The notes beneath the pieces are model-generated. The model was not told the origin of the DNA. It was given only the letters and a program-made list of their open reading frames with translations, and made no database searches. From contig JBBSOD010000001.1 in the NCBI GenBank assembly GCA_038260125.1, positions 1 to 26,637 of the forward strand: a stretch of 26,637 nucleotides of DNA. Direction: 5' to 3'. Each line of letters starts with the position of its first letter. Within the stretch, counting starts at the first letter, position 1. The DNA is from Chthoniobacterales bacterium (GTDB lineage: Bacteria; Verrucomicrobiota; Verrucomicrobiia; Chthoniobacterales; Chthoniobacteraceae). Positions 6,988-24,700 of the stretch are shown piece by piece. The position numbers and the translations under genes are program-made.

Positions 6988-6990
6988 CTT

Positions 6991-7902
6991 TTAGAAATGC
7001 ACGAAAACCATCAGACCCAGAATCACCGGCAGATAAACGATCGACGAGAAAAAGAGCCTCCGGGCCGAAGCGCGGGAGCGGTCGGTCACGAAGCGGACTG
7101 CGTAGTAAAGCAGCAGTCCGTCGATGGCCAGCGCGATCCCGACATACACGAGGCCCGCCCACCCCAGAGCGAAAGGCATGAGCGTCACACCCGCCAGGGC
7201 CACCGCGTAAAGCAGCGATTTCCAGGCCGTGGCCGCGCCGTCGGTGTCGCGCACGTTCAGCATGTGGAAGCCCGCCTGCGCATACTCGTCGCGATACATC
7301 CAGGCGATGGCGAGAAAATGCGGAATCTGCCAAAGAAAGAGCACGCCGAAGAGAATCCACGCCCCCGCGCCCGTGGCCGGTCCGCCGGCGGCCGTCCAGC
7401 CGATAACCGGCGGAATCGCCCCCGAGACCGCGCCGACGGTCACACAGACCGGGCTGACCCGTTTCAGCGGAGTGTAAATCGCGAGATAGATCAGCAGCGT
7501 GGCTGCCGCCAGGAGCGTCGCGGTCGGATTCGTGGTGAAGGCCAGATAAGCCAGCCCCGCCACTCCGCACGCCGCGCCGAGAGCGATGGCCTGCTCCGAC
7601 CGCCAGCGCCCGGCCGGCAGCGGACGGGCCTTCGTCCGTTCCATCAGCCGGTCCACCCGCACCTCGATCGCCTGATTCAGGATGGCCGCCGCCGCCGCCA
7701 CCAGCGCCGTGCCCACCAGCGTGTGCAGCAGCCGCACCCAGTCCAGCGGGCCCGGCGACGCCAGGCAGAAGCCGACGAAAGTCGTAATCAGCATCAGGAG
7801 ATTAAGGCGCGCCTTGGTCAGAACCATCAGGTCAGCCATCATGCTGGCGTCATCCGTTTCCAGGAGGGGCTCCTCTACCGTGCGCGAGATTTCGCTTTTC
7901 AA
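6991..7902 (-). CDS. ctaB: Protoheme IX farnesyltransferase (heme O synthase)
   Basis: LTKARL, NQAIEVRVDRLMERTKARPLP, YTPLKR, GAIPPVIGW and WQIPHFLAIAWMYRDEY. TTG start overlaps the ctaA stop (TTGA); ATG 7842 is the alternative. Confidence 0.93.
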   Translation of the reverse strand: MKSEISRTVEEPLLETDDASMMADLMVLTKARLNLLMLITTFVGFCLASPGPLDWVRLLHTLVGTALVAAAAAILNQAIEVRVDRLMERTKARPLPAGRWRSEQAIALGAACGVAGLAYLAFTTNPTATLLAAATLLIYLAIYTPLKRVSPVCVTVGAVSGAIPPVIGWTAAGGPATGAGAWILFGVLFLWQIPHFLAIAWMYRDEYAQAGFHMLNVRDTDGAATAWKSLLYAVALAGVTLMPFALGWAGLVYVGIALAIDGLLLYYAVRFVTDRSRASARRLFFSSIVYLPVILGLMVFVHF

Positions 7903-8861
7903 GCAGCGCCCTCCGCTACGGAAGATTCGGGTCCATTCGCGAAACGCGCACGGTGGCTCCCGATCCCGTTCGCCGCCAGCGCCAGCCGCGTGCGAAGAGC
8001 GGCTGCTGTGGCCAGGATGAGAGCGCCGTTCACGACATGGAAGGTGGTCGGAACGGGCGCTTTTGCAAGCCAGATGACACTCGCCCCCAGCATGACCTGC
8101 AAGAGCACGAGACCAAGGAGCAGGCAGGCCGGGCGCAGCAGCCTCCCCTCCCCGCGGGTCGTGCGCACCGCGGCCACCGTGAGCGCGAAGATGGTCCCGA
8201 GAACGACCAGAGCGCCGATCCGGTGAGTGAAATGGATGATGACTGGAAACGTGTCCAGCGGTGGAATCCAACCTCCGAAGGATGTCGGGAAATCAGGGAT
8301 GATCAGCCCCGCTTTGAAGTGCCGCATGATCGCGCCGACGACAAGTTGAGCGTAAACCACCACGATGGCCAGCGACGCCAGACGGGTCAGGCCGGCACGC
8401 TCCCGGCCGGAGACATCCCGGCGCGGCGACAAGGCGGTCGCCAGCACCACCAGTCCGGCCAGGACGGCCTGCGCCAGACACCCGTGAAACACCGCCAGCG
8501 AGAGCGAGCGTTCCGTCACCCTCAGCCCGCCCAGCACGCCCTGCACGCTCACGCCAAGCAGGGCCGCGATCGCCAGCCAGCGCACCCAGCGACGGCTCTC
8601 CGTGCGCCATGTCCAGATGGTTAGTCCGATAATGAGCAGCCCGAGCGTCGAAGCGATCAGCCGGTGTCCGTGTTCCAGGCGGACATTCTCGATCTGCCAC
8701 CAGCCGGCGGGGTTGATGCTCCCGTAGGATAGCGGCCAGTCCGGCACGGCCATGCCGGCCTGTTTACTCGTGACCATCCCGCCCACGAAGATGAGTGCGA
8801 GGGTGAAAAGAACACAGAGCCAGGCAAAGCGCGCGAGCCAGACGGAGCGGGGCGGGTTCAT
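7899..8861 (-). CDS. ctaA: Heme A synthase (CtaA/Cox15), type without the N-terminal Cys pair
   Basis: GGMVTS..AGMAVPDWP, EHGHR, FHGCLAQ, HFTHR and FHVVNG; 8 TM segments. Confidence 0.92.
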   Translation of the reverse strand: MNPPRSVWLARFAWLCVLFTLALIFVGGMVTSKQAGMAVPDWPLSYGSINPAGWWQIENVRLEHGHRLIASTLGLLIIGLTIWTWRTESRRWVRWLAIAALLGVSVQGVLGGLRVTERSLSLAVFHGCLAQAVLAGLVVLATALSPRRDVSGRERAGLTRLASLAIVVVYAQLVVGAIMRHFKAGLIIPDFPTSFGGWIPPLDTFPVIIHFTHRIGALVVLGTIFALTVAAVRTTRGEGRLLRPACLLLGLVLLQVMLGASVIWLAKAPVPTTFHVVNGALILATAAALRTRLALAANGIGSHRARFANGPESSVAEGAA

Positions 8862-9173: not shown

Positions 9174-10139
9174 CTATTCCTCCCGCGCCGGGGCGGGCTC
9201 GCCAGCGGATTCTGCTCCTGCTCCGGGCTGCCGCGCGGAGGTCGCGGCGGCGTCTTCGTTAGCCGGAGGCAAAGGCTCCTTCACCTGCGCGGCGGCGGGT
9301 TGCTCAGAAGGCTCGAAAGTCGTGCCGCCCTGCGCGGCGGGCTGCCCGACATCCTGCGGCTCACCGGGCGAAGGTGCGGTCTGGCCCTGCGGGGCAGGTT
9401 TGGGAATCAGCGCCGCCATGTCCGTCTGCCACTTGCCGTAATCCTCCGCCGTGTCCACCGTCAGCAGGCCGCGCATAGCGTAATGCCCCAGTCCACACAA
9501 CTGCCCGCAGATAATTTCGTATTCGCCCGCTTTCGTCGGCGTAAACCACACCGGAATCATCTGCCCGGGAATCGCGTCCTGCCCCACCCTCATCGCCTGG
9601 ATGGAGACGTTATGAATCACGTCCTTGGCCATGATCTCCAGAATGACTGGCTTGTTCAGCGGGGTGTGCAGATCGTTCGTCACCACTAGATCGTCCGCCC
9701 CTTCCGGCGTGGAACGGTCGAGTCCGATCGCGTTCGAGGCATCGACGAGTTCGATCTTGCGCGGCCCGAATTTTTTGTCCGCGCCGGGGTAGTGAAAGAT
9801 GAAGTTGAACTGCTGCGCGATCACCCGCACGCGTTCCGCCTGCTCCACCGGAAACTCGTTCACCCGTTTCGCCCAGAGCGGAAAAGCGAACCCGATCAGC
9901 AGCACCGCTTCCACGATCACCACGCTCACTTCCAGGTGCGTCGTGATTTTCGTCTTCGCACCGTAGTAGTTCGCACGGGGATGGCGCGATTTGTGAAAAC
10001 GGAAGAGGACATAGACCAGAAAAATACTCCAGCCCATGAGCAGGATGAGCACTTTCCAGTGCACAAACTCCAGCATCTGATCGATGTGGATGCCGTGCTG
10101 AGAAGCATTGGGAATGAGGCCGAGAAGTCTGTTCAGCAT
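9174..10139 (-). CDS. coxB: Cytochrome c oxidase subunit II (CuA) with Pro/Ala/Gln-rich C-terminal tail
   Basis: Two TM helices, DVIH and CGQLCGLGHYAM CuA motif. Confidence 0.95.
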   Translation of the reverse strand: MLNRLLGLIPNASQHGIHIDQMLEFVHWKVLILLMGWSIFLVYVLFRFHKSRHPRANYYGAKTKITTHLEVSVVIVEAVLLIGFAFPLWAKRVNEFPVEQAERVRVIAQQFNFIFHYPGADKKFGPRKIELVDASNAIGLDRSTPEGADDLVVTNDLHTPLNKPVILEIMAKDVIHNVSIQAMRVGQDAIPGQMIPVWFTPTKAGEYEIICGQLCGLGHYAMRGLLTVDTAEDYGKWQTDMAALIPKPAPQGQTAPSPGEPQDVGQPAAQGGTTFEPSEQPAAAQVKEPLPPANEDAAATSARQPGAGAESAGEPAPAREE

Positions 10140-10154
10140 TTCTAAATATCGAGG

Positions 10155-10388
10155 CTAGGCGGAATCAGTGGGCGGCAGGCCGTTCGAATGGCGGCCGAGA
10201 TAGACCATAAAAACGACGATGCACGCGAGCACGACCCCGAGCACCGCCAGCAGGGCCAGGATGGCGTAACTGAGTGCCTTGGTGTCGGCGGAAGTGGGCG
10301 AGCCGAAGCAGACGGCGCAGGCCTGCGCGGAACCAGTCAGCCCCATCCAGAGCAGTGCAGTCAGCAGCAGAGTCCATCGCGCGCTCAT
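10155..10388 (-). CDS. Small exported membrane-anchored CxxC protein of unknown function
   Basis: Signal peptide ending SAQA, then CAVCFG, then one TM helix. ATGA-coupled to the upstream gene. Confidence 0.8.
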   Translation of the reverse strand: MSARWTLLLTALLWMGLTGSAQACAVCFGSPTSADTKALSYAILALLAVLGVVLACIVVFMVYLGRHSNGLPPTDSA

Positions 10389-10588: not shown

Positions 10589-10936
10589 TCAGTGCGGCAG
10601 GCGGATAGGATCCCAGTAGTGCAGCCAGGTCAGAAAAAACAGACCGCAGGCAAAGAAGACGGTGAACGCGAGCAGCACGTAGATCTGCCGCCGCTCGTGA
10701 TTCAGGTGCATGAAGATCAGCGCCACCAGCCCGGCTTTAACCGTGGCCACGATCATCGCGATCACGATGTTCGCCTGCATCGAGCCGAAGTCGAAATAGG
10801 ACAACGCCACCGTCACGCCCGTCAGCACGAGCAGCGCGCCGAAGACCAGCATGTAGGCGCGCACATGCACCGTGACGGCGGCGTGCTCGTTCTCGTGACC
10901 CGGCTGCGAGTGAGTCGATGGAGTGCTCATGCTCAT
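10589..10936 (-). CDS. ctaF: Cytochrome c oxidase subunit IV (CtaF/CyoD-like)
   Basis: YMLVFGALLVLTGVTV...IATVKAGLVALIFMHL; three TM helices. Confidence 0.9.
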   Translation of the reverse strand: MSMSTPSTHSQPGHENEHAAVTVHVRAYMLVFGALLVLTGVTVALSYFDFGSMQANIVIAMIVATVKAGLVALIFMHLNHERRQIYVLLAFTVFFACGLFFLTWLHYWDPIRLPH

Positions 10937-11875
10937 TTACAGAAGATAAAAGATGGGAAACACGAAAATCCAGACCAGATCGACGAAGTGCCAGAACAAG
11001 CCGGCCACTTCGAGGCGGTTGGCCAGGTGCTCGGGCTCTGCGTCATACATTTTGCGGCTGCGGAAAAAGAAATAAGTGAAGACCACGATGCCGCCGAAGA
11101 CGTGCAGGCCGTGCAGCCCGGTGATGGTGAAATAGGTCGCAAAATAGTTGCTGTGCTTCGGCAGGAAAGCGGTCGCCCAGAGCACATCCTTCGCCTCGAC
11201 ATGGGCCTGCTTTTCCGACGGCGGCTTGTGCCAGAAATGCGGGCGATCGTTCGCCGGATTGGTCGGGTCGGCGTTTTCCGTATCCAGATTAATATGATAG
11301 CCGAGAATCTGCACGCCCTTCTCCTGCGCCAGGTGCGACACCTCGGAAGGCGAATGAATCTCCACTTCCTCCTCCCGGCCGTCGCGCGAGATATCGACCG
11401 CGTGCAGGTGCCCGGTGATCTCGGTCCGCGGAGCGAGTCCCTTTTTGGCCAGATGTTCGTTGCCCAGATAGGGCTCGTATTTCAGACGGGCCTCCTCTTT
11501 CAGATAAATGCCGAAGTGATCGAACTTCTGCGGATATTCGTAGGCGAGCTTCACTACGAGGAAGATCAGGCCGCACACGATAGTCGCGCCCAGATACACG
11601 AGGTAGTGAGTGTAGCGGCGCATTTTGAGCGAGGCCCAGGCCATGACCACCGTGACCGACGAGAGAATCAGGATGGCGGTGTTCATCGTCCCGACCGGGA
11701 CATTCAGCAGCCCGTGCGGCCAGAAACCCGGCTCAGCCCCAAGCCGCAGGAAGACGTAGCCCGAGAACAGGCCGCCGAAGAGCATCACTTCCGAAGCCAG
11801 AAACAGCCAGATGCCGATCTTGGCGTTCCAAAGCTGCGTGTCCGGCCGCGGCGTTACGGTGTAAGGAATTTCCAT
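10937..11875 (-). CDS. coxC: Cytochrome c oxidase subunit III (short five-TM type) with a large loop insertion
   Basis: GIWLFLASEVMLFGGLF, NTAILILSS, TGLHGLHV and GLFWHFVDLVWIFVFP. Confidence 0.95.
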   Translation of the reverse strand: MEIPYTVTPRPDTQLWNAKIGIWLFLASEVMLFGGLFSGYVFLRLGAEPGFWPHGLLNVPVGTMNTAILILSSVTVVMAWASLKMRRYTHYLVYLGATIVCGLIFLVVKLAYEYPQKFDHFGIYLKEEARLKYEPYLGNEHLAKKGLAPRTEITGHLHAVDISRDGREEEVEIHSPSEVSHLAQEKGVQILGYHINLDTENADPTNPANDRPHFWHKPPSEKQAHVEAKDVLWATAFLPKHSNYFATYFTITGLHGLHVFGGIVVFTYFFFRSRKMYDAEPEHLANRLEVAGLFWHFVDLVWIFVFPIFYLL

Positions 11876-11887
11876 AGCAGTCTCTCG

Positions 11888-13777
11888 TCAGGCACGGGGC
11901 TGGGTTTCGGGCGAATCCACCATCGCCTGATCGACCAGATTCGGTCGCGCTTTTTCGGTGACGCCATCGCCTCGCAGCGTCTCCGTTTTCTCCGGTAGCG
12001 GCAGCCATTGCGGGCTGAAATCGGCCGCCACTTCGGGATGGCTGTACTCGTAAGGCCCGGTGTAAGCGGAAGGCTGGGTCGCGAAGTTGCCGTGCGGCGG
12101 CGGCGAAGGCGCGGCCCATTCGAGCGTGGTCGCGTCCCACGGATTGTCCGAGACCAGGCGGCCGAACTTGATGCTCAGGAAGAAATTCAGAATGAACGGG
12201 ATCTGGAAGAGCCCCAGAATGAAGGCTGACCAGAACATGAAAGGATTCCAGTGCAGCACATTCTGCGTGAGATCCCAGCCCGCGCCGCCGTCATACCAGC
12301 GGCGGTGCATGCCCGCCATGCCCTGCAGAAACATCGGAAAGAATATGCCGTTCATGCACGCGAAGGAGCCGAAGAAATGCACCCGCCCCCAGAACTGGTT
12401 CATGTTTCTCCCCACCGCCTTCGGGTACCAGTAATAAACGCCCGCGAAGATGGCGAAAATCGTCCCGGGCGCGACGATGTAGTGAAAATGCCCGATGACG
12501 TAGTAGGTGTCGTGCAGGTACAGACCGATCGAGTTGAAGGCCAGCGGAATGCCGGTCAGACCGCCCAAGCCGAACATGGGCAGGAAGCCCGTCGCGAAAA
12601 GCATCGGCACGGTGAACTTGATCGAGCCGCCCCAGAGAGACATCAGCAGCACAGTCACGATGACGACCGACGGCACGGAGATCAGGACCGTCGTCGTCTG
12701 GAAAAAGGTGCTCACCTTACTCCCCATCCCGGTCAGATACATATGATGCGCCCACACCACGAAGGAGAGAAACCCGATGCCCATCGTCGAATAGACCAGG
12801 CCCTTGTAGCTCCAGAGCGGCTTGCGCGTGCCGTTGGCGATCACGTCGCCCACGATGCCGAGGCCCGGCAGGATGAGCACATAGACCTCGGGATGCGCCA
12901 GGAACCAGAAAAGATGCTGCCAGAGCAGCGGACTGCCCCCGCCCGCCACCGCCCACGGCTGGCCGTTCACCACCAGACCCGACGGCATAAAGAAGCTCGT
13001 GCCCGCCACCCGGTCCATCAGCTGCATAAAGCTCGCGGCTTCCAGCGGCGGAAAGGCCAGCAGCAGCAGATACGCCGTGACCATCTGAGCCCAGACAAAA
13101 TACGGCATCCGCATCCAGCTCATGCCGGGCGCGCGGAGCTGGATGATCGTCGTAATGAAATTGACCGAGCCCAGCAGTGACGACGTGATGAGCATGACCA
13201 TGCCCAGGAGCCAGAACGTCTGACCGGTCATCCACATGTTCTCGTGCAGCCCGTTGACCGCTGCCAGCGGCGAATAGGATGTCCAGCCCGATTTGGCCGC
13301 CCCGCCCGGCACGAAGAAGCTGACCAGCATGATCACGCCGCCCACCGCAAAGGACCAGAAGCTGGCCATGTTGATCTTCGGGAACGCCATGTCCGGCGCG
13401 CCGATCTGGAGCGGCACCACGTAGTTGCCGAAGGCCGCGAAGGCCACCGGCACGATACCGAGAAACACCATGATCGTTCCGTGCATCGCGCCCAGCTCGT
13501 TGTAGAAATCCGAAGCCATCACGCCGTCCTTAAACGCCTCTTCGCCGAGCACGTTCTCCACTATTTTCCCGATGATCGGCAGCGGATCGCCCGGATAAGC
13601 GAGCTGCCAGCGCATCAGCATCATCAGCCCGAAGCCGAAGAGGAGAAAGGACAGGCCGGTGATGCCGTACTGGATCCCGATGACCTTGTGATCGGTCGAA
13701 AAAACGTATTTCTGCCACCACCCCAGTTCATGGTGATCGTGGTGTTCTTCGTGATGATGAGCGGAGGCGCTGTCCAT
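11888..13777 (-). CDS. coxA: Heme-copper oxygen reductase subunit I, A1 type
   Basis: DHKVIG, MHGTIM, GAPDMAFPKIN (D-channel), WFLAHPEVY, VWAHHM, GHFHY and GMHRR. Start at ATG 13777. Confidence 0.97.
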   Translation of the reverse strand: MDSASAHHHEEHHDHHELGWWQKYVFSTDHKVIGIQYGITGLSFLLFGFGLMMLMRWQLAYPGDPLPIIGKIVENVLGEEAFKDGVMASDFYNELGAMHGTIMVFLGIVPVAFAAFGNYVVPLQIGAPDMAFPKINMASFWSFAVGGVIMLVSFFVPGGAAKSGWTSYSPLAAVNGLHENMWMTGQTFWLLGMVMLITSSLLGSVNFITTIIQLRAPGMSWMRMPYFVWAQMVTAYLLLLAFPPLEAASFMQLMDRVAGTSFFMPSGLVVNGQPWAVAGGGSPLLWQHLFWFLAHPEVYVLILPGLGIVGDVIANGTRKPLWSYKGLVYSTMGIGFLSFVVWAHHMYLTGMGSKVSTFFQTTTVLISVPSVVIVTVLLMSLWGGSIKFTVPMLFATGFLPMFGLGGLTGIPLAFNSIGLYLHDTYYVIGHFHYIVAPGTIFAIFAGVYYWYPKAVGRNMNQFWGRVHFFGSFACMNGIFFPMFLQGMAGMHRRWYDGGAGWDLTQNVLHWNPFMFWSAFILGLFQIPFILNFFLSIKFGRLVSDNPWDATTLEWAAPSPPPHGNFATQPSAYTGPYEYSHPEVAADFSPQWLPLPEKTETLRGDGVTEKARPNLVDQAMVDSPETQPRA

Positions 13778-13909
13778 GCTGGTATAAGCGAATCTAATGT
13801 TTAGCACAGGCCCGGCGGTCGGACAACCGGACTTTGCTCAGAATTGAAAGGGACATTTGCCATTCGACTGTCCCAGTGAAAAAGGCGCGCGGGCCGCAGG
13901 CGGAATGAC

Positions 13910-14731
13910 TCACGAAGCCGCCCCCCCCTCGGCTGCGGGAGGAGCTTCTCCGGCGGGCGGAGCGCCGCCCGGCAGCGTATCGTTTTCGGGAATGGCGAGC
14001 AAATCTTCTTCCGTCATGGCTCCGGCATGTCCCTGCAACGCCGCGCGGGCCGCCGCCATCTGCTCGGGTGTGACCGGCGGGGCACTGTTCCCCCAGGCCT
14101 GTCGGATGTAGGTCAGGATGTGCGCGATCTTTTCGTCCGTCAGGGTAGGTCCCCAGGCCTGCATGACACCCGAATAGGCCTGCTTCTGGCCGTTGATCGT
14201 GATCGGCCCGGCGAGTCCATGCAAGAGGATCGAGGCCAGGCGCTTGTTGTTGCCGGTCACCCATTCGCTCCCCGCGAGCGGCGGATACTGCCCCGCCGCG
14301 CCTAGTCCGGTCGCCTGGTGACAGGTCGTGCAGTTCTGCTTGTAAAAGATCTCCCCGAGCTGCGGCGAAGTTTTTTCCGTCTGCTCCTCACCTTTCCCGG
14401 CGCCGTCTCCCGACGCGAAAAACATCCCCGGATCCCAGCGCCGCTCGCTGTAAACGTCGCTCCGGAAAGCGCCGCTGAAGAGCATGAGATAGCCGCCGGC
14501 CCAGAAGATGGCCGCGCCGCACAGAATGATCAGCCACAGCGGAAACGTGCCGAGCGATGCCTCCCCTTCGCGCCGCAGGGATGGCTCCGGCTTTTCGCGC
14601 TGGACCGCGTGCTGATGCGTGATGTCCTGGCCTTCGGTGTAATCCACCTCGCCGGTCATTTCCCCTTCGGGATACTTCTGCGGCGTCAGCTCGGGCGGAA
14701 CTTTCCCCGCTAGTTCGTCACGATTCTTCAT
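13910..14731 (-). CDS. Membrane-anchored class I monoheme cytochrome c
   Basis: One TM helix, CTTCH, YPPLAGSEWV and axial Met in GVMQAW. Confidence 0.92.
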   Translation of the reverse strand: MKNRDELAGKVPPELTPQKYPEGEMTGEVDYTEGQDITHQHAVQREKPEPSLRREGEASLGTFPLWLIILCGAAIFWAGGYLMLFSGAFRSDVYSERRWDPGMFFASGDGAGKGEEQTEKTSPQLGEIFYKQNCTTCHQATGLGAAGQYPPLAGSEWVTGNNKRLASILLHGLAGPITINGQKQAYSGVMQAWGPTLTDEKIAHILTYIRQAWGNSAPPVTPEQMAAARAALQGHAGAMTEEDLLAIPENDTLPGGAPPAGEAPPAAEGGAAS

Positions 14732-15450
14732 TGAGCGCCTTTCTCCGTGGAAGTTTCCTCCGCCGCCGGTGCCGCCGTCTCCGCGTCTCCGGCTCCGCTC
14801 GCCTCCGCGTCTTTCTTCTCCTCTTCCTTCGCTTCGGTCAGCGCCTCGGGCAACGGATGCGTGCGGTCGAGCGAAAGCAGATAGCCGACGAGCGCCCGCG
14901 CGTCATCCGTAGGCACGATCTCGTAGCTGGGCTGGCCGATTAGCACGCCCTTCATGATGGCGATCGCATCGTGCGAGACCGCGCCTGCAACCTTCCGCTT
15001 CTCGAAAAGAAAAGAGTAGGGCGGCATGATCGAGCCCGGCGACACACTGCGCGGGTTGTACAAATGCCGGTAGTGCCAGTGCGCGTCGTCGCGCCGTTTA
15101 CCGATGCTCGAGAGATCGGGGCCGAGGCGGTTCCACCCCGCCAGCATGGTGGTATCGTAAAGGTAATCGCGCGCCACGTTCTGCCTTGTGCCCCATTGCC
15201 GGACGATCCCGGTGTCAGCGTAGCCGGGCAGAAGCTGCTGGCTGTGGCAGTTCACGCACCCGTTCGCCACATACACGGCCCGGCCCTGCGCGACCACGCC
15301 GGAGCGATTCACCGGATAGACATCGCCCGTGTCCGCATCCACCTGCGGCTCCAGCGCATCGAGCTGGAGAAACGGAATCGCGACCATCACGATCCAGCCC
15401 AGCGTGAAGAGGGCGAACACCCCGCCGAGGACCGAGCCGAGCTTATTCAA
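14728..15450 (-). CDS. CcoO/FixO-like monoheme cytochrome c
   Basis: N-terminal TM, GRAVYVANGCVNCHSQQ, RLGPDLS, HLYNPR and SIMPPY (axial Met). Confidence 0.9.
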   Translation of the reverse strand: MNKLGSVLGGVFALFTLGWIVMVAIPFLQLDALEPQVDADTGDVYPVNRSGVVAQGRAVYVANGCVNCHSQQLLPGYADTGIVRQWGTRQNVARDYLYDTTMLAGWNRLGPDLSSIGKRRDDAHWHYRHLYNPRSVSPGSIMPPYSFLFEKRKVAGAVSHDAIAIMKGVLIGQPSYEIVPTDDARALVGYLLSLDRTHPLPEALTEAKEEEKKDAEASGAGDAETAAPAAEETSTEKGAQ

Positions 15451-16916
15451 TGGGCCACCTCCGCAGGTTGAGGGACGATCAGCGTGGGAGCGCCGCCCGG
15501 TCGCCCGAGCCGGGCGAGCATCATGAGAAAATGCAGGCCGAAGACGGTTTGCCCGAAGAAGAGCAGCACCTGCGCGATGGTGCTGCCGGCCAGAAACGGC
15601 AACGTGCTTTCATAAACCTGCTCGAATGAATTACCCGGATCCATCATGGCCGCCCCCTGCATGAGCCCGCCCACCAGGAGCATGAGGAGGAGGAGCCCGA
15701 TGCCGTAGGCCGCGCCCCAGAAGTGCAGTTTGATCAGCCAGGCCGAGCGCCACTCCACGCCCACCAGCCGCGGCACGATGTAGTAGATGCAGCCAAACAT
15801 GACCATGCTGAAAAAGGCGTAAAGATCCAACTGGATCAAGCCGCGCGCGCCCATCGTCAGGTGCATGAAGTGACCGGCCGAGCGCAGCGAGAAGATAATG
15901 TTCAGGCAGCCCGCCAGCGTGTAGGCCATGGCCCCGATGACCACGAACCGCAGCGTCGGGCTGAAGTGCATCATCGTGATGTTCTGGCGCAGCGTGAAAT
16001 GATGATTTACCGCCACCGTGGCGATGGGAATGATGGTCAGGACCGAAGCCACGATGCTCGCCGTGATGACCCATGAAGGCAGCGGTCCGCCCAGGAAGGC
16101 GGGCAGTCCCCGGAAGCTGTAGAAAAGGACGAAAGTCCAGAAGCCGAACGTGGCCAGGTGATAGCTGAAAATGGGCAGCCCGGTTACTTTCGGGATCATA
16201 TAGTAGGCCGCCGCCAGCCCGATGGCGGTGAGCCAGAGCCCGAAGAGATTGCCCGCGAACCAGAAGACGATCGCGCTCTGCACTGCGCCCTCGACCGGCA
16301 GCACATGCAGCATCAGATTTCCAATGGCATAGATCCAGGGGAAGGCGAAAAACGCGCAGATCAGATACCACTGCGACACGAAGACGTGCCCGCTGCGCCG
16401 GAAGCGGTAAAGGACCACGCCCCAGATGCCGATGGCGGAGTAGCCGAGAAAGATCAGCACCGCCGCGTAGCCCGGAAACTCGAGATAGGGGAACGGTCCG
16501 CCCGCGCCGGCCAGAATGGCGATCGTGCCGACGATCAAACCGAGATTCCAGAGCGCCGCGCCGAAGGTAATGAAGAGCGGGTAGCGCAGTTCGACCCGGC
16601 AGAGACGGGCCATGATCCAGATGGCCGTGCCCACGCCGGCCAGCGAGGCCCAGCCGTAGAACATGAGGTTGTTCTGCACCGGGACGAGGCGGCCGAAGTT
16701 CAGCGCGGCGCAGAAGGAAAGGAAACCCGGATAGTGCAGCTTGATGCTGGTGATGAGGCTGATCAGGCTGGCCAGGAAGAGCCAGAAAAGAGCCGAGGCA
16801 TAAAACAGCAGCACGGGAAACCGGGTCGAGGTATCGATCGCGGCGCGCTCGCGCGCTTCCCGCGACGGCCCGGCGGTCTGGGTCACTGGCATTTCCTCTA
16901 AAGTGGCGGCGGTCAT
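15447..16916 (-). CDS. CcoN-like (cbb3 subunit I fold) membrane protein lacking all heme/Cu histidines
   Basis: FGRL, YLEFP, VSQWY, YYMIPK..G.PIFSYHL..FGFW, YYIVPRL and HFW motifs of CcoN are present, with ligand positions substituted. Paired with the ccoO-like gene by an ATGA overlap. Confidence 0.85.
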   Translation of the reverse strand: MTAATLEEMPVTQTAGPSREARERAAIDTSTRFPVLLFYASALFWLFLASLISLITSIKLHYPGFLSFCAALNFGRLVPVQNNLMFYGWASLAGVGTAIWIMARLCRVELRYPLFITFGAALWNLGLIVGTIAILAGAGGPFPYLEFPGYAAVLIFLGYSAIGIWGVVLYRFRRSGHVFVSQWYLICAFFAFPWIYAIGNLMLHVLPVEGAVQSAIVFWFAGNLFGLWLTAIGLAAAYYMIPKVTGLPIFSYHLATFGFWTFVLFYSFRGLPAFLGGPLPSWVITASIVASVLTIIPIATVAVNHHFTLRQNITMMHFSPTLRFVVIGAMAYTLAGCLNIIFSLRSAGHFMHLTMGARGLIQLDLYAFFSMVMFGCIYYIVPRLVGVEWRSAWLIKLHFWGAAYGIGLLLLMLLVGGLMQGAAMMDPGNSFEQVYESTLPFLAGSTIAQVLLFFGQTVFGLHFLMMLARLGRPGGAPTLIVPQPAEVAH

Positions 16917-16942: not shown

Positions 16943-17578
16943 TTACGTGGCCGGAGCGGGCGCGGGGGGTGAAGGCGAAGCGGCGGGGCTGGCGGCGGGA
17001 GAAGGATCAGGAGCCGCGTTCAGAGTGGCAGCGGCAGGTTCGGGAGCGGCGGCTTCGGCGGCGGGCGGGGCAGCTGGCGTGGGCGAAGATGCAGGAGCGG
17101 CGATCGGAGCCGGAGCCGGAGTTACAGATGTGGAACTCGCGCCCTGAGCGGGAGCAGGCGCGGCATTTTCAGCCGGAGCCCCAGCCGGAGCTGGAGAAGC
17201 CGCGGGAGCCGCGCCGTCCGCGGGAGTCGCCGCCGAGTCGCCCGCTGCGGGTGCGGGCGGAACAACCGGCACCTCGCTGGGGCCGACTTTCCGCTGCTGG
17301 AGATCATGCAACGTCAGTTCCATCGCACGGTGGACCGGGAGGCGGACCGTGCTTTGCGCCTTGTCGATCCAAGCGTAGTTTTCGAGCTGTTCCTGCTCTT
17401 CCTTAACCAGCTTCTCGTGATTTTCACGCCGCTCACTGGCCCGAGTCCGATCGTATTCCTTGACCTCTTCACCGAAGAAATGAACGCCGACCATCGCCAC
17501 CAGGCCCAGAAAGCAGAAGGCGAGCAACGCCCACAGAAAGGTGGGCCAGACCGATTTATCGCGGAAGTCGTCGGCCAT
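16943..17578 (-). CDS. actG: ACIII subunit ActG-like with ~110-aa Pro/Ala tail
   Basis: One TM helix, then YAWIDKAQSTVRLPVHRAMEL. ATG 17578 lies 2 nt after the actF stop; the track start at 17902 overlaps actF. Confidence 0.75.
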   Translation of the reverse strand: MADDFRDKSVWPTFLWALLAFCFLGLVAMVGVHFFGEEVKEYDRTRASERRENHEKLVKEEQEQLENYAWIDKAQSTVRLPVHRAMELTLHDLQQRKVGPSEVPVVPPAPAAGDSAATPADGAAPAASPAPAGAPAENAAPAPAQGASSTSVTPAPAPIAAPASSPTPAAPPAAEAAAPEPAAATLNAAPDPSPAASPAASPSPPAPAPAT

Positions 17579-17580
17579 CG

Positions 17581-18777
17581 TCAGTTGGAAAGGTTCACCG
17601 AGCGGACCAGATGCGGATCGCGCAGCGGATAGAGAGGCTGGCCGAGCATCAGTTTTAGAAAGACGAATCCTAGAATACCCCCGAGCGCGAGCACGGTGAA
17701 GATATCGAGGAAATGAGGAGCAAAGCCGAACTGATGCAGCATCGGCATGACAATAATATAGATGTCCAGCATCTGCATGAGGATCAGCCAGCTCGCGATC
17801 CCGCAGATAACGGCCGTTTTTTTCTTGAACTTCTGCAAGAGCCGCAGCGGGAAAGGAGTGAAAAAGCGACCGATGACCAGAATGAGGCTGAGGATATTCC
17901 ACGACCCAATGTTACGCCGCAAAAAGTAGGAGGTTTCCTCGGGAATGTTGGCATACCAGATGAGCATGTACTGGCTGAACCCGATGTAGGCCCAGAAGAT
18001 GCAGAAGGCCAGCATCAGCTTACCCATAATGTGATAATGCTCTTCGGTCACATCCTGCAGGTAGCCCCCCGCTTTCAGACCGCTAACAATCAGGACCAGC
18101 AAACACATGGCGCTCCCCGCCGAGCCGGCGAAAATATAGACACCCCACATGGTGGAGAACCAGTGGTGATCGAGTCCCATCAGCCAGTCGATGGCCGCGA
18201 AAGTCAACGACACCGCGAGGATGGGTATGCCGACGAACGAGAGCCGCCGCAGGTGGATGGTGCGGCGCGGATGGCCGTCGGAATCCTGCCGGACAGATAG
18301 GAGCCGGGCAAGAAAAGCGACAGCGAAGAGCAGGACGAAATAGGCAACCGCGCGGATGAGAAAGAACGGGATGTTGAGATAACCCTCTTTTTTATCGAGC
18401 AGCGAATCGATGCCCGGCGCGAGGCCCCACCACTTGAAAAGAAGGGGCGCGCAGAGCAGCATCGGGATCACGAGAATGGCGAGCACGCCGATAAGCACGG
18501 CCACATTTTCCAACTGCCGCCGCACCAGCACCGACCACTCGGCATCGGTGGCATGATGCACCAGGATCCAGAAAAGCGAGCCGACGCACATGGTGAAGAA
18601 CACCATGAACGCAAACAGATAGGAGAAGGCGAACTGCACCGGATTAAACAGACCGCAGAGGACGGTGCCTAGAATCCCGACCACCGCGGCGGCCAGAAAG
18701 ACGGTCGGCAGAATACCGAGATGCTTTCGGTCGAAGCGCTCGGGCATCGGCGCGCGGGAATGTGCGTGGCTGTCCAT
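17581..18777 (-). CDS. actF: ACIII subunit ActF
   Basis: FAFSYL..., HHATDAEWSVLVRR, DWLMGLDHHWFSTMWG, FWAYIGFSQYMLIWYANIPEET; ~10 TM helices. Confidence 0.92.
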   Translation of the reverse strand: MDSHAHSRAPMPERFDRKHLGILPTVFLAAAVVGILGTVLCGLFNPVQFAFSYLFAFMVFFTMCVGSLFWILVHHATDAEWSVLVRRQLENVAVLIGVLAILVIPMLLCAPLLFKWWGLAPGIDSLLDKKEGYLNIPFFLIRAVAYFVLLFAVAFLARLLSVRQDSDGHPRRTIHLRRLSFVGIPILAVSLTFAAIDWLMGLDHHWFSTMWGVYIFAGSAGSAMCLLVLIVSGLKAGGYLQDVTEEHYHIMGKLMLAFCIFWAYIGFSQYMLIWYANIPEETSYFLRRNIGSWNILSLILVIGRFFTPFPLRLLQKFKKKTAVICGIASWLILMQMLDIYIIVMPMLHQFGFAPHFLDIFTVLALGGILGFVFLKLMLGQPLYPLRDPHLVRSVNLSN

Positions 18778-19499
18778 TATTGCGGGCCTCCCTCGGCAGG
18801 TGCGGCGGGTTCAGGCGCGGGTTGGTCGAGCCGGGCGAGTTCGTGAGCGGGCACATCTTCCGCGGTCGCATTCACTCCGCGCTGCAAAGCGCGCAGGTAG
18901 GCGATGATGGCCCAGCGGTCGGGCACGGTGATATTTCCACCGTAGGAGCCCATGTTGCCTTTGCCGTGCGTGATCGTGTCGAAAATCTGTCCGTCCGGCA
19001 GCGCGCTGACCCGGGCGTCGATAATCGGGACGATGGTGGCGAGGCCGTATTGTTTAATGATGCCGTTGCCTGCGCCGGTCTGGCCGTGGCAGATGGCGCA
19101 ATTGATATTGAACCGCTCCCGGCCGCGCTCCATCACCTGCATATTCAAATCGAGCGGAATGCCATTGCCCCAGTTTTCGCCAATCTTCCCGGTGTCTGTA
19201 TAGTCCAGCCCGTTGCTGAACCCGGCCGGCTTTACCGTCACGCGGCTGTTGCTCGCGGAGGTGGTAAATGCGACGCCCGGATTGGCGTAGCCGCGCGGCA
19301 CGGTGCCCGCGACCGGTTCCCGCTGAACCTTGCCGTCGGCGAAGAAATCGCTCTCGTGCTGCGGACGGTATTTCGGCTGATCGTCCATATCCGGCAGAAT
19401 CTCGATAGGCGGACGCGTGCTGTGTGTGCCGCGGAAACCCGCGATGGCCAGCACGGCGATCACACCGATAAAGAAGAGGGCGAAGAAGTAGCGCAGCAT
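18777..19499 (-). CDS. actE: ACIII subunit ActE, monoheme cytochrome c
   Basis: DMDDQPKYRPQ..SDFFADG, GTVPRG, CAICHG, HGKGNM and DRWAIIAYLRALQ. Confidence 0.92.
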   Translation of the reverse strand: MLRYFFALFFIGVIAVLAIAGFRGTHSTRPPIEILPDMDDQPKYRPQHESDFFADGKVQREPVAGTVPRGYANPGVAFTTSASNSRVTVKPAGFSNGLDYTDTGKIGENWGNGIPLDLNMQVMERGRERFNINCAICHGQTGAGNGIIKQYGLATIVPIIDARVSALPDGQIFDTITHGKGNMGSYGGNITVPDRWAIIAYLRALQRGVNATAEDVPAHELARLDQPAPEPAAPAEGGPQ

Positions 19500-19501
19500 C
19501 T

Positions 19502-20050
19502 CTATTCCTCGACCAGGGTGACGTATTTTCCGCCGATCTTCTCGAGGAAGTCGCGGGTGCGGGTTTCGGCAAATTTAGGATCGCGCGACTCGATCACGAG
19601 GAAAAATCCATCGTCGGTCACGCGGGAAAAGCGATCCCAGTTAAACATGGGGTGATACCATTTCGGCAACTGATTGAAGACCAGCATCGCGAAGAACGCG
19701 GTAAAGGCGGAAAACAGAATGGTCAGCTCGAACATGATCGGCATGAAGGCCGGCACGGTGAAGAAGTCGGTCGGCTTGGCGTTGACCACCGTCTTGTATT
19801 CGATCAGAGCCGGATACATAGTCAGCGCCGTCGCGGTGAGCAGACCCGCGATGCCGCCAGCGAGAACCGGCGCGCTGAGCCAGGATTTTCCGAGGCCCAT
19901 CGCCTTATCCATCCCGTGGATCGGGAAGGGCGAATGGACATCCCAGCGCTTGAAACCTTCGTCGCGCACCTGTTCAGCCGCCTCGAAGAGCGCCTTCGCG
20001 GTCGAGAACTCCGCCGCCACTCCGTAGATTCGTTTAGGTTCGGCGATCAT
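19502..20050 (-). CDS. actD: ACIII subunit ActD (DUF3341)
   Basis: AEF...DVHSPFPIHGMD, PAFMPIMFELTILF and DDGFFLVIE. ATG 20050 is coupled to the actC stop. Confidence 0.92.
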   Translation of the reverse strand: MIAEPKRIYGVAAEFSTAKALFEAAEQVRDEGFKRWDVHSPFPIHGMDKAMGLGKSWLSAPVLAGGIAGLLTATALTMYPALIEYKTVVNAKPTDFFTVPAFMPIMFELTILFSAFTAFFAMLVFNQLPKWYHPMFNWDRFSRVTDDGFFLVIESRDPKFAETRTRDFLEKIGGKYVTLVEE

Positions 20051-21495
20051 TATTCGGTCACCTCCGTGGAATGAGCGTCCATCCCGATCTGCGCGTCTTC
20101 GACATGGTGATGCGGATCGGCCTCGGGGCTGACCAGTTTCACCTCGGACATGGCGATCATGGGCAGGAAGCGGATGAAGAGCAGGAAGAGGGAAAGGAAA
20201 ATACCGAACGTGCCGATGAAGGTCCAGATCTCCACCCACGACGGGTGATACATGTGCCAGGCGCTGGGCAGGAAGTCCTGCACGATGGAAGTCACGATGA
20301 TGACGAAGCGCTCGAACCACATGCCCGCGTTGACAAACATGCAGACGATGAAAACCACAATCAGATTTCTCCGCATGCTGGGGAACCAGAAGATCTGCGG
20401 CGAAATTACATTGCACGTCATCATGCAGATGTAGGCCCAGACGTAGGGACCGCCCACGATGCGGTTCCAGAAGGCGGCGCGCTCGAAGGGGTTCGCGCCA
20501 TACCAGGCGATGAACAGCTCCATCAGGTAGGCGTAGCCCACGATCGAGCCGGTCAGCAGGATGATCTTGCACATCTTATCAACGTGCGCGGGCGTGATGA
20601 GATCCTTCAACGCGGGGTAAATGAGCCGCGCGGGCAGCATGATCGTCAGCACCATGGCGAAGCCGCCGAAGATGGCGCCAGCGACAAAATACGGCGGGAA
20701 AATAGTGGTGTGCCAGCCTGGGACAATCGAGGTCGCGAAGTCGAACGACACGACGGAATGCACCGAAAGCACCAGCGGCGTAGAGAGACCCGCCAGCAGC
20801 AGATAGGCCATTTCATAGTGCCGCCACTGCCGGTTCGAGCCGCGCCAGCCCAGCGCGAAGATGCCGTAGATGACCTTCTTAATCTTGCTGGTGGTGCGGT
20901 CGCGCAGGGTGCCAAGATCGGGCACCAGCCCGGTGTACCAGAAGAGCACCGACACCGAAAAATAAGTCGAGACCGCAAAGACATCCCAGAGCAGCGGGCT
21001 GCGGAAGTTCGGCCAGATGGCGTTGGCGTTTGGCACTGGTGCCAGGAACCACGCCATCCAGACGCGGCCAACGTGGATGCCGGGGAAAATACCGGCGCAG
21101 ATCACCGCAAAGAGCGTCATCGCTTCCGCCGCGCGGTTGATCGAGGTGCGCCATTTCTGGCGAGTCAGAAAGAGAATGGCCGAGATCAGCGTCCCGGCGT
21201 GGCCGATGCCGATCCAGAACACGAAGTTGGTGATGTCCCAGGCCCAGCCGACGGGGTGATTTTCTCCCCACACGCCGACACCGGTCGAAATCTGGTAGCC
21301 GATGCAGAACAGCCCGATCATGGCGATGGTCGAGCAGATCAGAAACGACACCCACCACCACAGTTTCGTCGGGCCTTCCACGATCCCGGCCACGTTTTCC
21401 GTGACCCAGTTCAGACTGCGGTTGTTGGTGATGAGCGGCGGACGCTGGACCGCCGCGATCTCTTTCGCCGTGGGTGGCGGCAAGGTGCGAGCCAT
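20050..21495 (-). CDS. actC: ACIII quinol-binding subunit ActC (NrfD/PsrC family)
   Basis: [57 protein letters not shown] and [16 protein letters not shown]. Confidence 0.96.
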
Positions 21496-21765: not shown

Positions 21766-24700
21766 TCACGCGCCCACCTCCACTGCGGGCTGCGAAATGG
21801 GCTCGTTCGGCCCATGATGACTCTCCGGACTGCCGTGCTCCTCTTCCATATAGGCCGCTGGTTCGTGCGCGCCGGGCATGGCCGGGTTGAGGTTGCGGAT
21901 CCGGGCCAGATAACTCACCCGCGCTTTCACATTCAGATAATCGAGCAGCCGGTAATTGCGCGCGTCTCCCTTTAGTTTCGACACCTTGCTGTCGAGATTC
22001 ATCAGGTCGCCGAAGACGATCGCCTCCGACGGACACGCCTGCTGACACGCCACTTGGAAAACATCCACCGGAATTCTGATGTCGGGCGAGGACCCCGCCC
22101 GCACCTTTGCCGTGATCTTCGCCTCCTCGATCCGCTGCAGACAGAACGTGCATTTTTCCATCACGCCGCGCATCCGCACGGTCACGTTCGGATTTTTCTG
22201 CATCTTCACCGTGTCGGGCGAACCCTTCTCGGTCAGCGGTCCGAAATAGAGACCCTGCGCCTTGATCGGCCCCATCTGCATCTGCTCGATGGGCCGGGAA
22301 TTGTAGTCGAAGAAATTAAAACGCCGCACTTTGAACGGGCAGTTGTTCGCGCAATACCGCGTGCCGATGCAGCGGTTGTAGGCCATCACGTTCAGCCCCT
22401 CGTTGTTGTGCACGGTCGCGTTTACGGGGCAGACCGTCTCGCACGGCGCGTTCTCGCAGTGCTGACACATCATCGGCTGCGAAATCATTTCCGGGTCGTC
22501 TTCGTGGCCCTCGCGCGTTGCGTAGTAACGGTCCAGACGGATCCAGTGCATCTCGCGCCCGCCCATCACCTGAGTCTTGCCCACGACCGGGATGTTGTTT
22601 TCCGCCTGACACGCCACCACGCAGGCGTTGCAGCCGGTGCAGGTGTTCAGATCGACCGTCATGCCCCACTGCTCCGCGCCGTCGAGCGGCGGGTTGGTGT
22701 AAAGCGATTCCATCCCGGCGTCGGGATTTTCCGCGTCCATCCACATTTTCTGCGCGAACTCAGGATGCTCGTCGTATTTTGCCTTCGAGCCTTCGCGGAT
22801 TAACGCCCGGCCTTCCATGCTCCAGTGGTCCTGAGTCACGCCGAGCGGATAAGAGCCGCCGGTCTTCGTGATTTTCGCGCCGGTTAGAATGTAGGGCGAG
22901 TCGCTCAACAGCAGCGGAAATGCGTCCACGCCGCTGCCCGAAGCCACGCTGCCGATCATCCGGCGGCCGTAGCCGAGCGTCACCGTGATGGAATGATCCG
23001 CGTGTCCCGGCGAAATCAGCACGGGCATCTCGATCGACCGGCCGGCCACTTCGATCCTGATAATGTCGCCCGCCGTCGCCCCGCCCAGCACCCCGTTAGG
23101 CGCCTCGATTTCATAGCGGTCCGCCATCGCCTGATTCATCAGCGCGACGTTATCCCACGTCATCTTCGTGACGGGATCCGGCGTCTCCTGCAGCCAGCTC
23201 ACGTTGGCCCAGCTTCCGTAGCCCAGCTTGTAATCCGGCACCAGCACCACCTCCACCGCGTCCGCCGAAGCGGGCCGCAGTGGCTTTCGGTTGCCCGCAC
23301 CTTCGTCCCGTCCGCCGCTTAGCGAGAGCGCGCGCGGGGCTCCGGCGCTGTCTTTTTGAAAACCCGTCCGCAACAGCTCGTTCCACGCTTCGTCGAACGC
23401 CGCGCCGCTCGCGCCGGAGCGCTCCTGGAAAGTTTCCTGCACCCGCGCCGGACCGTGCGGATGCCCGTCGCCCGCCAGCATAGAGAGCAAATCGTTTTCC
23501 GACCAGCCGTCGTAGAGCGGCAGGATCATCGGCTGCATTGCGAGGTAGCTGCCGTCCGCCGCCAGCCCGTCGCCCCAGCTTTCCAGATAATGCGCAGCCG
23601 GCACATGCCAGCGGCTGACCGACGTGGTTTCGTCGTAGTTCAGCCCCAGCCGGATCGTTTCGGGCACGGCTTCCTGCAACTTCACCCAGCCCAGATCGGC
23701 GGGCGCATTGTAGGCGGGATTTCCTCCGAGAATGAAAAGCGTTTTGACCTGCTTGACTCCCATCTGCCACGCCAGATCGGTGATCGTCGCCGCCGGTTCC
23801 ACGTCCGACTGCTGGCCTTCCAGCGTCTGACCCAGCCCGCCGAGCGCCTGATTGATGGCCAACGCCGCCCGCTGCACCGCCGCCGGCTGCCGCGGACCCA
23901 CCGCCACCAGCGCCCGACCGCCCGCCGCCTTCAGATCCTTGGCCGCCTCGCGAATCCAGCCCTCGGGAAAAGTCACCCCCGCGGCCGCTTCCAGCCCGCC
24001 CGCCGACGCGCCCAGTTCCGCCGCCAGTTGCCGCGTAAACTCGCCCACATGACTGGCCGGGAGCCGCAGCCGGTGATCCGCCATGCCGCCGGTGATCGTA
24101 TAATGATTCTCCACCGCGTAGAGGCGGTTCATTTTGCCGCCGCCGTCCTGCTTCACCCCGCGCCGCCGCGCAAAATCGCGCTGATACCGCCCGCTCGCGT
24201 CCTCCGTGCCCAGCAGATCGCAATCCAGCGTCAGAATCACATCCGCATTCGCCACATTATAACTCTCTTGGACGCCCGGACCGAAGGCCGCACCCGCACC
24301 TGACAGCCCGCCCGGCTCATAGACCGCCCACATCGCCTGCGGAAACCGCTGCAGCACTTTTTTCCGCAGCCGCTCGCGCGTCGGCGAATTGCTTTCCTCC
24401 AGCAGCAGCGCCATTCCCGCGCCGCCGTCGCCTTCATGCCGGGCCAGCAGCTTCTCCAGATGCTTTTCGAAAATTTCCGCCTGCACCTGCTCCTTGTCGC
24501 GGATGAAATTTTTCGCGCGATCCGGATCGTAGAGCGCCAGCACCGAGGCCTGAACCTGCATGTCCGAACCGCCGTTGCTGGCCGGATGCTCCGGATTTGC
24601 ATCCACCTTGATCGGACGCCCGTCCACTGTCGTCACGATCAGCGGGATCGCCCCGCCCGCCCGCGGCATCGAGCTCGCGTAGAAAAGATTTTTGCCCGGA

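Follow-up and report, generated by a model that had tools for sequence, protein, structure and literature searches.

A CcoN-Fold Protein Lacking All Six Metal-Ligand Histidines, Encoded between Alternative Complex III and an aa3 Oxidase in Chthoniobacterales

What could keep the gene for the catalytic subunit of a cbb3-type oxidase in a genome once all residues that bind its metals have gone? The question is raised by a locus in a metagenome-assembled genome (MAG) of a soil Chthoniobacterales bacterium (GCA_038260125.1; 84% complete, 712 contigs). The window, i.e., the whole stretch of DNA analyzed, comprises 26,637 nt of contig JBBSOD010000001.1. The module in question occupies positions 13,910–16,916 and consists of the genes psN, psO and psP (N-O-P below), located between the genes of alternative complex III (ACIII) and those of an aa3 oxidase. 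A preceding sequence-only reading of the window had taken PsN for a pseudo-oxidase that holds two c hemes as a wire from ACIII to the CuA centre of aa3. According to the present analysis, whose functional statements rest on sequence, synteny and predicted fold, PsN is very probably non-catalytic. The whole statement, namely that it is a scaffold for a PsO/PsP relay leading out of ACIII and, here, to aa3, is given a probability of about 0.6.

The three genes of the module are as follows:
15447–16916, minus strand: psN, CcoN-fold protein of 489 aa with its six His ligands replaced (alignment, AlphaFold2, phylogeny)
14728–15450, minus strand: psO, CcoO/FixO-like monoheme cytochrome c with an N-terminal transmembrane helix (PF02433, 95 bits)
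13910–14731, minus strand: psP, membrane-anchored monoheme class-I cytochrome c of the c552/nitrite reductase (NiR)-tethered type (PF00034/PF13442)

Ligand Loss and Retained Fold of PsN

The phmmer alignment of PsN with Pseudomonas stutzeri CcoN (3mk7_A, E 3e-28) allowed all six metal-binding His residues to be mapped, and each of them is substituted, as had been read from the sequence alone. The ligands of the low-spin heme b are replaced by Gln (H60 by Q81 in the motif VPVQNN, H347 by Q362 in GLIQ), those of CuB by Gly, Pro and Ala (H207 by G222 in WFAGN, H257/H258 by P272/A273 in GLPA), and the heme b3 ligand by Leu (H345 by L360, also in GLIQ). The helix-VII Tyr251 had been thought to persist and indeed does so as Y266. 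Its cross-link His partner is now Gly, and in the sister Udaeobacter-type clade the Tyr itself is Ser or Ala.

Additional substitutions affect positions that are invariant in canonical and in intact ACIII-linked sequences (Arg78 and, in P. stutzeri numbering, E122, H337, S240 and T215). The clade of the window protein (the query clade) also lacks Arg78 of the RPxH motif, the Glu aligned with E122, which we take to be a Ca2+/propionate ligand, the His aligned with H337 and the Ser aligned with S240. As for residues aligned with the proton path, S240 is changed to Ala in both Chthoniobacterales clades devoid of the ligands (referred to below as ligand-less), and T215 is changed to Gly in the Udaeobacter-type clade. 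Since the heme b, heme b3 and CuB sites are lost, PsN is expected to be unable to reduce O2.

PsN matches Pfam COX1 with 128.6 bits and the ccoN model TIGR00780 with 124.8 bits, far under the cut-off of 583.15. The AlphaFold2 model, built with a 68-sequence alignment, has a pLDDT of 90 and a pTM of 0.91. In the Foldseek comparison with 3mk7_A it gives TM-scores of 0.87/0.91 and an rmsd of 2.6 Å, with the 12-helix CcoN fold retained, and the comparison with solved CcoN chains gives TM-scores of 0.84–0.91 and rmsd values of 2.0–2.8 Å over ~460 columns. The only ESM Atlas clusters found for PsN are annotated "cbb3 subunit I family protein". As modelled, the oxidase shell is intact and the metal sites are gone.

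Selection and Conservation

The ratio of nonsynonymous to synonymous substitution rates (dN/dS) was estimated by the Nei–Gojobori method against two relatives with 89% and 87% identity. This check, which had been suggested along with the sequence-only reading, indicates strong purifying selection on psN: the values are 0.10 (dS 0.69) and 0.063 (dS 1.15), a level like that of genes of the same operon (actF, 0.087 and 0.073; coxC, 0.069; coxB, 0.072). The values of 0.11–0.13 for psO and psP also correspond to purifying selection. The psN reading frame is unbroken in 99 of 99 complete relatives, and 112 columns are invariant across 16 diverse members of the family. The earlier reading had named the retention of His ligands by orthologues as a sign of recent decay. 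Some members of the clade are in fact intact, but the loss is old and clade-wide; recent decay of psN is ruled out by the dN/dS of 0.06–0.10 together with the clade-wide conservation.

Conserved residues fall into several sets. Thirty-four, mostly Trp, Gly, Pro and Tyr, are shared by all CcoN groups, and a further 42 are confined to the ACIII-linked clade, whose intact and ligand-less members both keep them. These markers of the ACIII lineage outlast catalysis, which fits a structural role tied to ACIII.

Several of these 42 residues (H305, H306, R323, E388 and W389) lie in segments that, from the helix pattern of the model, are predicted to face the cytoplasm. They belong to a cluster of conserved His, Arg and Glu residues that is for the most part confined to the ACIII-linked clade and has outlasted the loss of the ligands. 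Two other members of the cluster differ in distribution: H398 is conserved throughout the CcoN groups, and H462 is a conserved feature of the ligand-less Chthoniobacterales clades alone.

Distribution of ACIII-Linked CcoN-Like Proteins and Repeated Ligand Loss

More than 1,244 homologues of PsN were detected in the protein collection, and at least 568 species genomes encode one. The 80 best loci all keep the gene order actA-B-C-D-E-F-orfG-N-O-P as far as their contigs extend.

A sample of 401 Verrucomicrobiota genomes was searched with the ccoN model. Canonical CcoN sequences score 593–681 bits in this phylum sample and belong to ORFs of ~720–900 aa, consistent with a fusion to CcoO. Non-canonical sequences form one class at 208–288 bits and another below ~180 bits. 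The genes act are located directly upstream in 24 of the 27 non-canonical loci retrieved; two loci (L085, L104) have no act genes upstream, and one (L099) has only ~2 kb of upstream sequence. All six His and the Tyr are present in the 208–288-bit class; in the low-scoring class they have been lost through substitutions that differ from lineage to lineage.

The substitutions can be written as patterns in the order H60, H207, Y251, H257, H258, H345, H347. The query clade has Q-G-Y-P-A-L-Q and the Udaeobacter-type clade (L006–L084, L094) H-N-S-Q-R-Y-H; among other lineages A-A-G-V-N-Q-Q, Q-S-G-S-R-E-Q, F-G-A-R-L-V-Q, A-S-A-T-S-V-L, H-S-A-Q-K-F-I and L-N-A-T-Y-H-W occur. In the Udaeobacter-type clade both heme b His residues are kept in ~80% of sequences, and strongly conserved Asn, Gln, Arg and Tyr occupy the positions of the CuB/b3 ligands. 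Judging from these residues, the Tyr at the position of the former proximal His may reflect a remodelled pocket rather than simple loss.

Phylogenetic trees (quick maximum likelihood trees in IQ-TREE, 70–71 rows) group the ACIII-linked sequences in a single clade (SH-aLRT 98–99) that is separate from canonical CcoN. The query belongs to a 38-row ligand-less subclade of Chthoniobacterales whose sisters are intact (P0073, L092). With respect to ligand loss, the tree demands at least four changes of state, the exact placement of some ligand-less lineages being unsure because of their long branches. In the approximately unbiased (AU) test with the seven ligand columns masked, a single ligand-less grouping was rejected (delta lnL 157, p 1.5e-11). 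The distinct substitution patterns between lineages likewise argue for multiple losses, so a single origin of the ligand-less state can be ruled out on both grounds.

At the order level, 121 Chthoniobacterales genomes, almost all at least 90% complete, were analyzed. A CcoN-like gene is present in 112 of them, ActD in 110 and canonical CcoN in 23. Counted by hand by score class, with the boundary checked on the residue patterns of ~34 loci, ~69 genomes (~57%) carry the ligand-less type and ~39 the intact ACIII-linked type. A survey of this kind had been proposed as a check on the pseudo-oxidase reading; ligand-less CcoN does co-occur with act genes, and its adjacency to cox genes is variable.

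The act-N-O-P arrangement was also seen in relatives (L045, L046, L049, L076) on short contigs from MAGs that bear the labels Acidobacteriota, Nitrospirota, Alphaproteobacteria and Dormiibacterota. L045, the sole such relative in the tree, nests within the Chthoniobacterales clade. These labels outside Verrucomicrobiota are likely due to mis-binning. Three longer relatives (P0018, P0092, P0119) have 601–660 aa, and P0018, with both a FixO and a COX1 domain, looks like an N-O fusion; it may be an assembly artefact, since many genes of its locus (L031) are fragmented.

Cytochrome Partners PsO and PsP

PsO carries the heme motif CVNCH and aligns to residues 50–147 of CcoO, including CxxCH and the region of the axial Met. 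One CxxCH is found in 88 of 92 complete relatives; two relatives with none come from assemblies rich in broken genes. PsP carries a single CTTCH, its class-I heme domain being joined by a linker to one transmembrane helix; one CxxCH is present in 84 of 85 complete relatives. It had been said that both partners keep CxxCH and Met: CxxCH holds for both, and the Met was aligned for PsO.

The third ORF does not bear out the CcoP-like identity proposed for it. PsP scores 37.7 bits on TIGR00782 (CcoP; cut-off 180) and is not diheme. Its best relatives of solved structure are the tethered cytochrome c of the Ralstonia Cu nitrite reductase (3ziy, E 9e-20) and Thermus c552 (1c52, E 2e-13), whereas the match with CcoP is far weaker (E 5e-6). 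Homology between the PsP heme domain and ActE was considered and is not detectable (E 0.008 over 15 residues).

Both NiR-tethered cytochrome c and Thermus c552 donate electrons to cupredoxin copper centres, a likeness in favour of the relay proposed below.

Respiratory Gene Cluster of the Window

The respiratory genes of the window form one long minus-strand run from 25646 down to ~6331:
24969–25646, minus strand: actA, pentaheme cytochrome c of ACIII (five CxxCH; Pfam cytochrome c7/c3)
21766–24972, minus strand: actB, Fe-S subunit of ACIII (Pfam 4Fe-4S dicluster domains; syntenic in all loci)
20050–21495, minus strand: actC, NrfD-type membrane quinol-binding subunit (PF03916 NrfD)
19502–20050, minus strand: actD (PF11821 ActD, 195.5 bits)
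18777–19499, minus strand: actE, monoheme cytochrome c (PF13442; one CxxCH in 80 of 80 relatives)
17581–18777, minus strand: actF, second NrfD-like membrane subunit (by position and synteny only)
16943–17578, minus strand: orfG, single-transmembrane protein with a Pro/Ala-rich tail, at the actG position
11888–13807, minus strand: coxA, subunit I of an A-type oxidase (PF00115, 426.8 bits; TIGR02891, 552.9 bits)
10937–11875, minus strand: coxC, subunit III (PF00510)
10589–10936, minus strand: coxD, prokaryotic subunit IV (PF03626, 59.5 bits)
between coxD and coxB, minus strand: two small ORFs (gene order)
9174–10139, minus strand: coxB, CuA subunit II without a heme c domain (PF00116, TIGR02866)
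6331–8861, minus strand: ctaA, ctaB and a Sco-like gene (PF02628, PF01040, PF02630)

All ACIII components from ActA to ActF are thus present in one cluster according to Pfam matches and heme counts, with ActF assigned by synteny only: it has no Pfam match and is conserved in all loci with 49–57% identity. The 4-nt overlaps of psN/psO and psO/psP agree with the gene-to-gene coupling described earlier. The position of the module between actG and coxA also stands, but the identity of actG does not, since orfG has no family match and the name would be positional. Among relatives orfG is weakly conserved (30–40% identity; dN/dS 0.25–0.29). According to a consensus scan, which is weak evidence, the minus strand contains only one sigma-70-like site, upstream of actA.

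The CoxA score on TIGR02891 is below the cut-off of 670.75, and its start codon is probably the ATG at 13777. The products of ctaA, ctaB and the Sco-like gene have roles in heme a synthesis and copper delivery for aa3, and the order of these genes is repeated in two other loci (L106, L107). The Sco-like protein (6331–6987) matches PF02630 weakly (34 bits); the sequence-only reading alone describes it as devoid of Cys/His ligands and reports a small CxxC protein at 10155–10388, upstream of coxB. Pro/Ala-rich C-terminal tails are common to PsP, OrfG, PsO and CoxB. A tyrosine-integrase gene (PF00589, 2960–4165) is located at the low-coordinate side of the respiratory cluster.

The Link between ACIII and the aa3 Oxidase

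ActA was correctly read as having only five hemes: five CxxCH motifs are present here, as in 60 of 60 relatives. The CoxB encoded downstream of the module contains no CxxCH, and neither do those of 13 of 13 relatives. In Flavobacterium johnsoniae, a sixth, mobile ActA heme is needed for the step from ACIII to the oxidase, and in Rhodothermus marinus this step is served by a heme c fused to caa3 (PMC8552683). Neither a sixth ActA heme nor a CoxB-fused heme c is present in the system of the window.

A second ACIII is encoded in the same genome (contig C13; L125:140–10961; L001). It is directly followed by a caa3 oxidase, without N-O-P, and the CoxB of this oxidase has a fused cytochrome c domain. 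The same arrangement was found in nine of nine second clusters retrieved from relatives (L126–L134). This comparison indicates that N-O-P goes with an oxidase that has no heme c of its own. The aa3 genes directly follow the module on the same strand in the query clade, in pmoA-bearing genomes (see below) and in L111.

Several observations weigh against the proposed path to aa3, at least as a general one. A distance of 4–9 kb to the aa3 genes is frequent in the Udaeobacter-type clade, and in L012 these genes lie behind opposite-strand ORFs; several ligand-less modules (L095–L098, L112–L114) have no cox genes within 8–10 kb. Because cox genes are distant or not nearby in many ligand-less relatives, aa3 is not a universal acceptor. 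Modules with intact ligands (L090, L092) also adjoin an A-type oxidase, so cox adjacency does not explain ligand loss, and a strict tie of the loss to an adjacent aa3 is ruled out by the occurrence of both intact modules with cox and ligand-less modules without it. No similarity could be detected between the heme domain of PsP and that of caa3 CoxB (E 0.25). By analogy with the proposal for R. marinus, ActE might reach CuA directly, and, given the 84% completeness, the genome may encode other cytochromes c or a true cbb3. No RNA run contains the window; only soil DNA runs do.

The wire from ACIII to CuA thus keeps circumstantial backing from the heme-less CoxB and the caa3 comparison, but not from the gene order of the many relatives with distant cox genes. 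Judged by synteny, the invariant partner of N-O-P is ACIII, not aa3. The chances that aa3 is the electron acceptor in this genome are put at about even.

Proposed Role of the Module and Alternative Explanations

PsN has lost its ligands, yet it is strongly conserved along with intact c cytochromes, and for this reason a structural platform is its most likely role. Strong support for the pseudo-oxidase reading comes from the loss of the ligands and of the Glu, Arg and proton-path residues from a protein whose fold and selection are kept, in an old and clade-wide state. The synteny and the heme motif counts of PsO and PsP lend good support to the extension of this reading, in which the protein is retained, within a complex with ACIII, on account of its two c-type partners. 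We infer a physical association with ACIII, a scaffold role and an electron path to aa3.

The ancestral module would have been an ACIII-bound oxidase of the cbb3 type. In lineages where O2 came to be reduced by other oxidases, N would no longer have needed its catalytic centre, and this would have decayed; the protein as a whole would have had to stay, as the base on which O and P are assembled and through which they are docked to ACIII. Heme b would be dispensable as well, since its ligands, still present in most sequences of the sister clade, were lost repeatedly. PsN would then be a 12-helix membrane platform on which the single-helix, single-heme PsO and PsP sit beside ACIII, the three proteins together being the electron exit of the complex. 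The putative path would lead from menaquinol via ActC and the Fe-S clusters to the ActA hemes (and ActE), on to the hemes of PsO/PsP and finally to CuA of aa3. That a hard-wired ACIII–cbb3 assembly became a cofactor-free bridge, giving an ACIII–(fossil cbb3)–aa3 megacomplex, in at least four lineages is a tentative extension of this proposal.

Other roles of the module were considered. N-O-P could be an output branch of ACIII toward other acceptors (soluble cytochromes, caa3, a true cbb3 or denitrification enzymes) or an electron buffer, with the adjacency of aa3 being a lineage-specific gene order. The ligand-less modules without nearby cox genes agree with this explanation, as does the presence of canonical CcoNO elsewhere in several of those genomes; in F. 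johnsoniae, moreover, ActE is dispensable for aa3 activity and may serve another partner (PMC8552683). It is nevertheless considered unlikely, given the same-strand aa3 genes directly after the module in the groups named above, the lack of a terminator-like site in the psP–coxA gap of the window (consensus scan, a weak line of evidence), the absence of an own heme c from aa3 and the pairing of N-O-P-free ACIII with caa3. A new role of PsN outside electron transfer, as a proton or ion path for ACIII, an assembly factor or a lipid- or metal-binding subunit, has a low probability. Whether ACIII pumps protons remains debated (PMC8498564), and the clade-specific cytoplasm-side residues (H305, H306, R323, E388, W389), together with H398 and, in the ligand-less clades, H462, could serve such a role; these residues are, however, conserved in intact members too, so that no gain is tied to ligand loss. 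The proton-path residues of cbb3 are lost (S240 to Ala; T215 to Gly in the Udaeobacter-type clade), and a role in electron transfer is suggested by the heme motifs, which PsO and PsP have strictly retained.

Heme binding by PsN through non-canonical residues, with redox activity retained and perhaps a new chemistry, is quite improbable. The Udaeobacter-type clade, with its largely kept heme b ligands and conserved Asn, Gln, Arg and Tyr that could form a remodelled pocket, offers some room for it. The query clade offers little: its ligand positions hold Gly, Pro, Ala/Gly/Glu, Leu/Val/Tyr and Gln/Trp/Arg and vary among close relatives, Q81 and Q362 make poor ligands for heme, neither the propionate-binding Arg nor the canonical Glu is left, and no conserved His, Met or Tyr pair is seen in the membrane core. 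Finally, ligand-less lineages outside Chthoniobacterales have long branches (0.7–4.2 substitutions per site), as a functionless decaying relic might. For PsN this explanation is hardly tenable in view of the dN/dS of 0.06–0.10, the frame intact in 99 of 99 relatives, the 112 invariant columns among 16 members, the confident fold model and the retention of the gene in ~57% of the sampled Chthoniobacterales genomes. The scaffold for a PsO/PsP relay out of ACIII is therefore preferred.

pmoA-Bearing Genomes and Implications

The phylum sample includes five genomes of one family (f13) with one to four pmoA copies each, four of them with three or four, and sizes of 2.2–2.5 Mb; on these grounds they are taken to be Methylacidiphilaceae-like. 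In two of them (G279, L121:10563–13283; G132, L124) the genes are arranged as act-N-O-P-coxA-coxC-coxB, as in the window, and N has the pattern S-E-S-S-H-F-V, with five of six His lost. Its score on the ccoN model is 22.6 bits in G279, the only one scanned. Other COX1-family genes of G279 are two of A-type, one with 268 bits that may be B-type, and NorB. A 198-bit COX1 match in a pmoA-bearing genome was considered as a true cbb3 and rejected, since it is NorB. Papers on verrucomicrobial methanotrophs list a cbb3 terminal oxidase adjoining ACIII genes (PMC6688271, PMC8498564, PMC10205796).

According to Murali et al. 2024, active-site His residues are conserved in all heme-copper oxidase (HCO) families except gNOR, where the exception is a single His-to-Asp change (PMC11214002). 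Measured against this survey, a clade in which all six His are missing is outside the described range. No published ligand-less CcoN or pseudo-oxidase was found in the literature searched, with subscription journals mostly outside reach.

High-affinity, microaerobic respiration is widely inferred from the marker gene ccoN. Such inferences would be wrong for Chthoniobacterales, an order that includes the very abundant soil genus Udaeobacter, if most copies there are cofactor-less, and the same caution applies to the ccoN copy of pmoA-bearing, Methylacidiphilum-like genomes. If the megacomplex is real, the counted "cbb3 oxidase" of the sampled Udaeobacter-type Chthoniobacterales and of verrucomicrobial methanotrophs would not be an O2 reducer, and genome-based claims of high-affinity respiration would need revision. 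Intact, heme-b-only and fully ligand-less versions in one operon form a natural series, which can show how an oxidase turns into a structural subunit, how ACIII hands over electrons and which parts of the fold serve assembly rather than catalysis.

Comparison with Known Systems

The module resembles the cbb3 oxidase CcoN-CcoO-CcoP of P. stutzeri (3MK7/5DJQ) in the CcoN fold, the heme motif of the CcoO-like partner and the N-O-P gene order. It differs from this C-family HCO in that PsN has no ligands for heme b, heme b3 and CuB (TIGR00780 score of 125 vs. 583), in that PsP has one heme instead of two and belongs to another type of cytochrome c, and in that the genes are tightly linked to the act genes. 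Also close are the intact ACIII-linked cbb3-like oxidases of Verrucomicrobiota, which share with the query the clade (SH-aLRT 99), the act-N-O-P layout and the 42 marker residues at 39–50% identity. The intact oxidases have all six His as well as the Tyr and are presumed to reduce O2, whereas the query clade has lost the ligand His. They correspond to the C-type oxidase of Opitutaceae whose occurrence with ACIII is ascribed to Refojo et al. 2010 in PMC8498564.

The ACIII–aa3 of F. johnsoniae (6BTM) and the ACIII–caa3 of R. marinus (6F0K) are similar in that ACIII and an A-type oxidase are co-encoded and in that a c heme beyond the ActA pentaheme wire is required to reach CuA. There, the extra heme is located in a mobile N-terminal ActA domain or in a CoxB-fused domain; here, two separate membrane-anchored cytochromes, carried by a dead oxidase subunit, would take this place. 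In Rhodobacter capsulatus cytochrome cy (6XKW) and in the diheme QcrC of actinobacterial bcc-aa3 (6ADQ, 7QHM), tethered c hemes replace a soluble carrier between a quinol oxidase and a terminal oxidase. The likeness to these supercomplexes is a functional analogy; in the present system the anchor would be a fossil catalytic subunit. A former enzyme kept as a structural subunit is known from the peptidase-like core proteins of mitochondrial complex III. This parallel is conceptual and concerns another protein family; in the system described here, the dead protein would be a former terminal oxidase.

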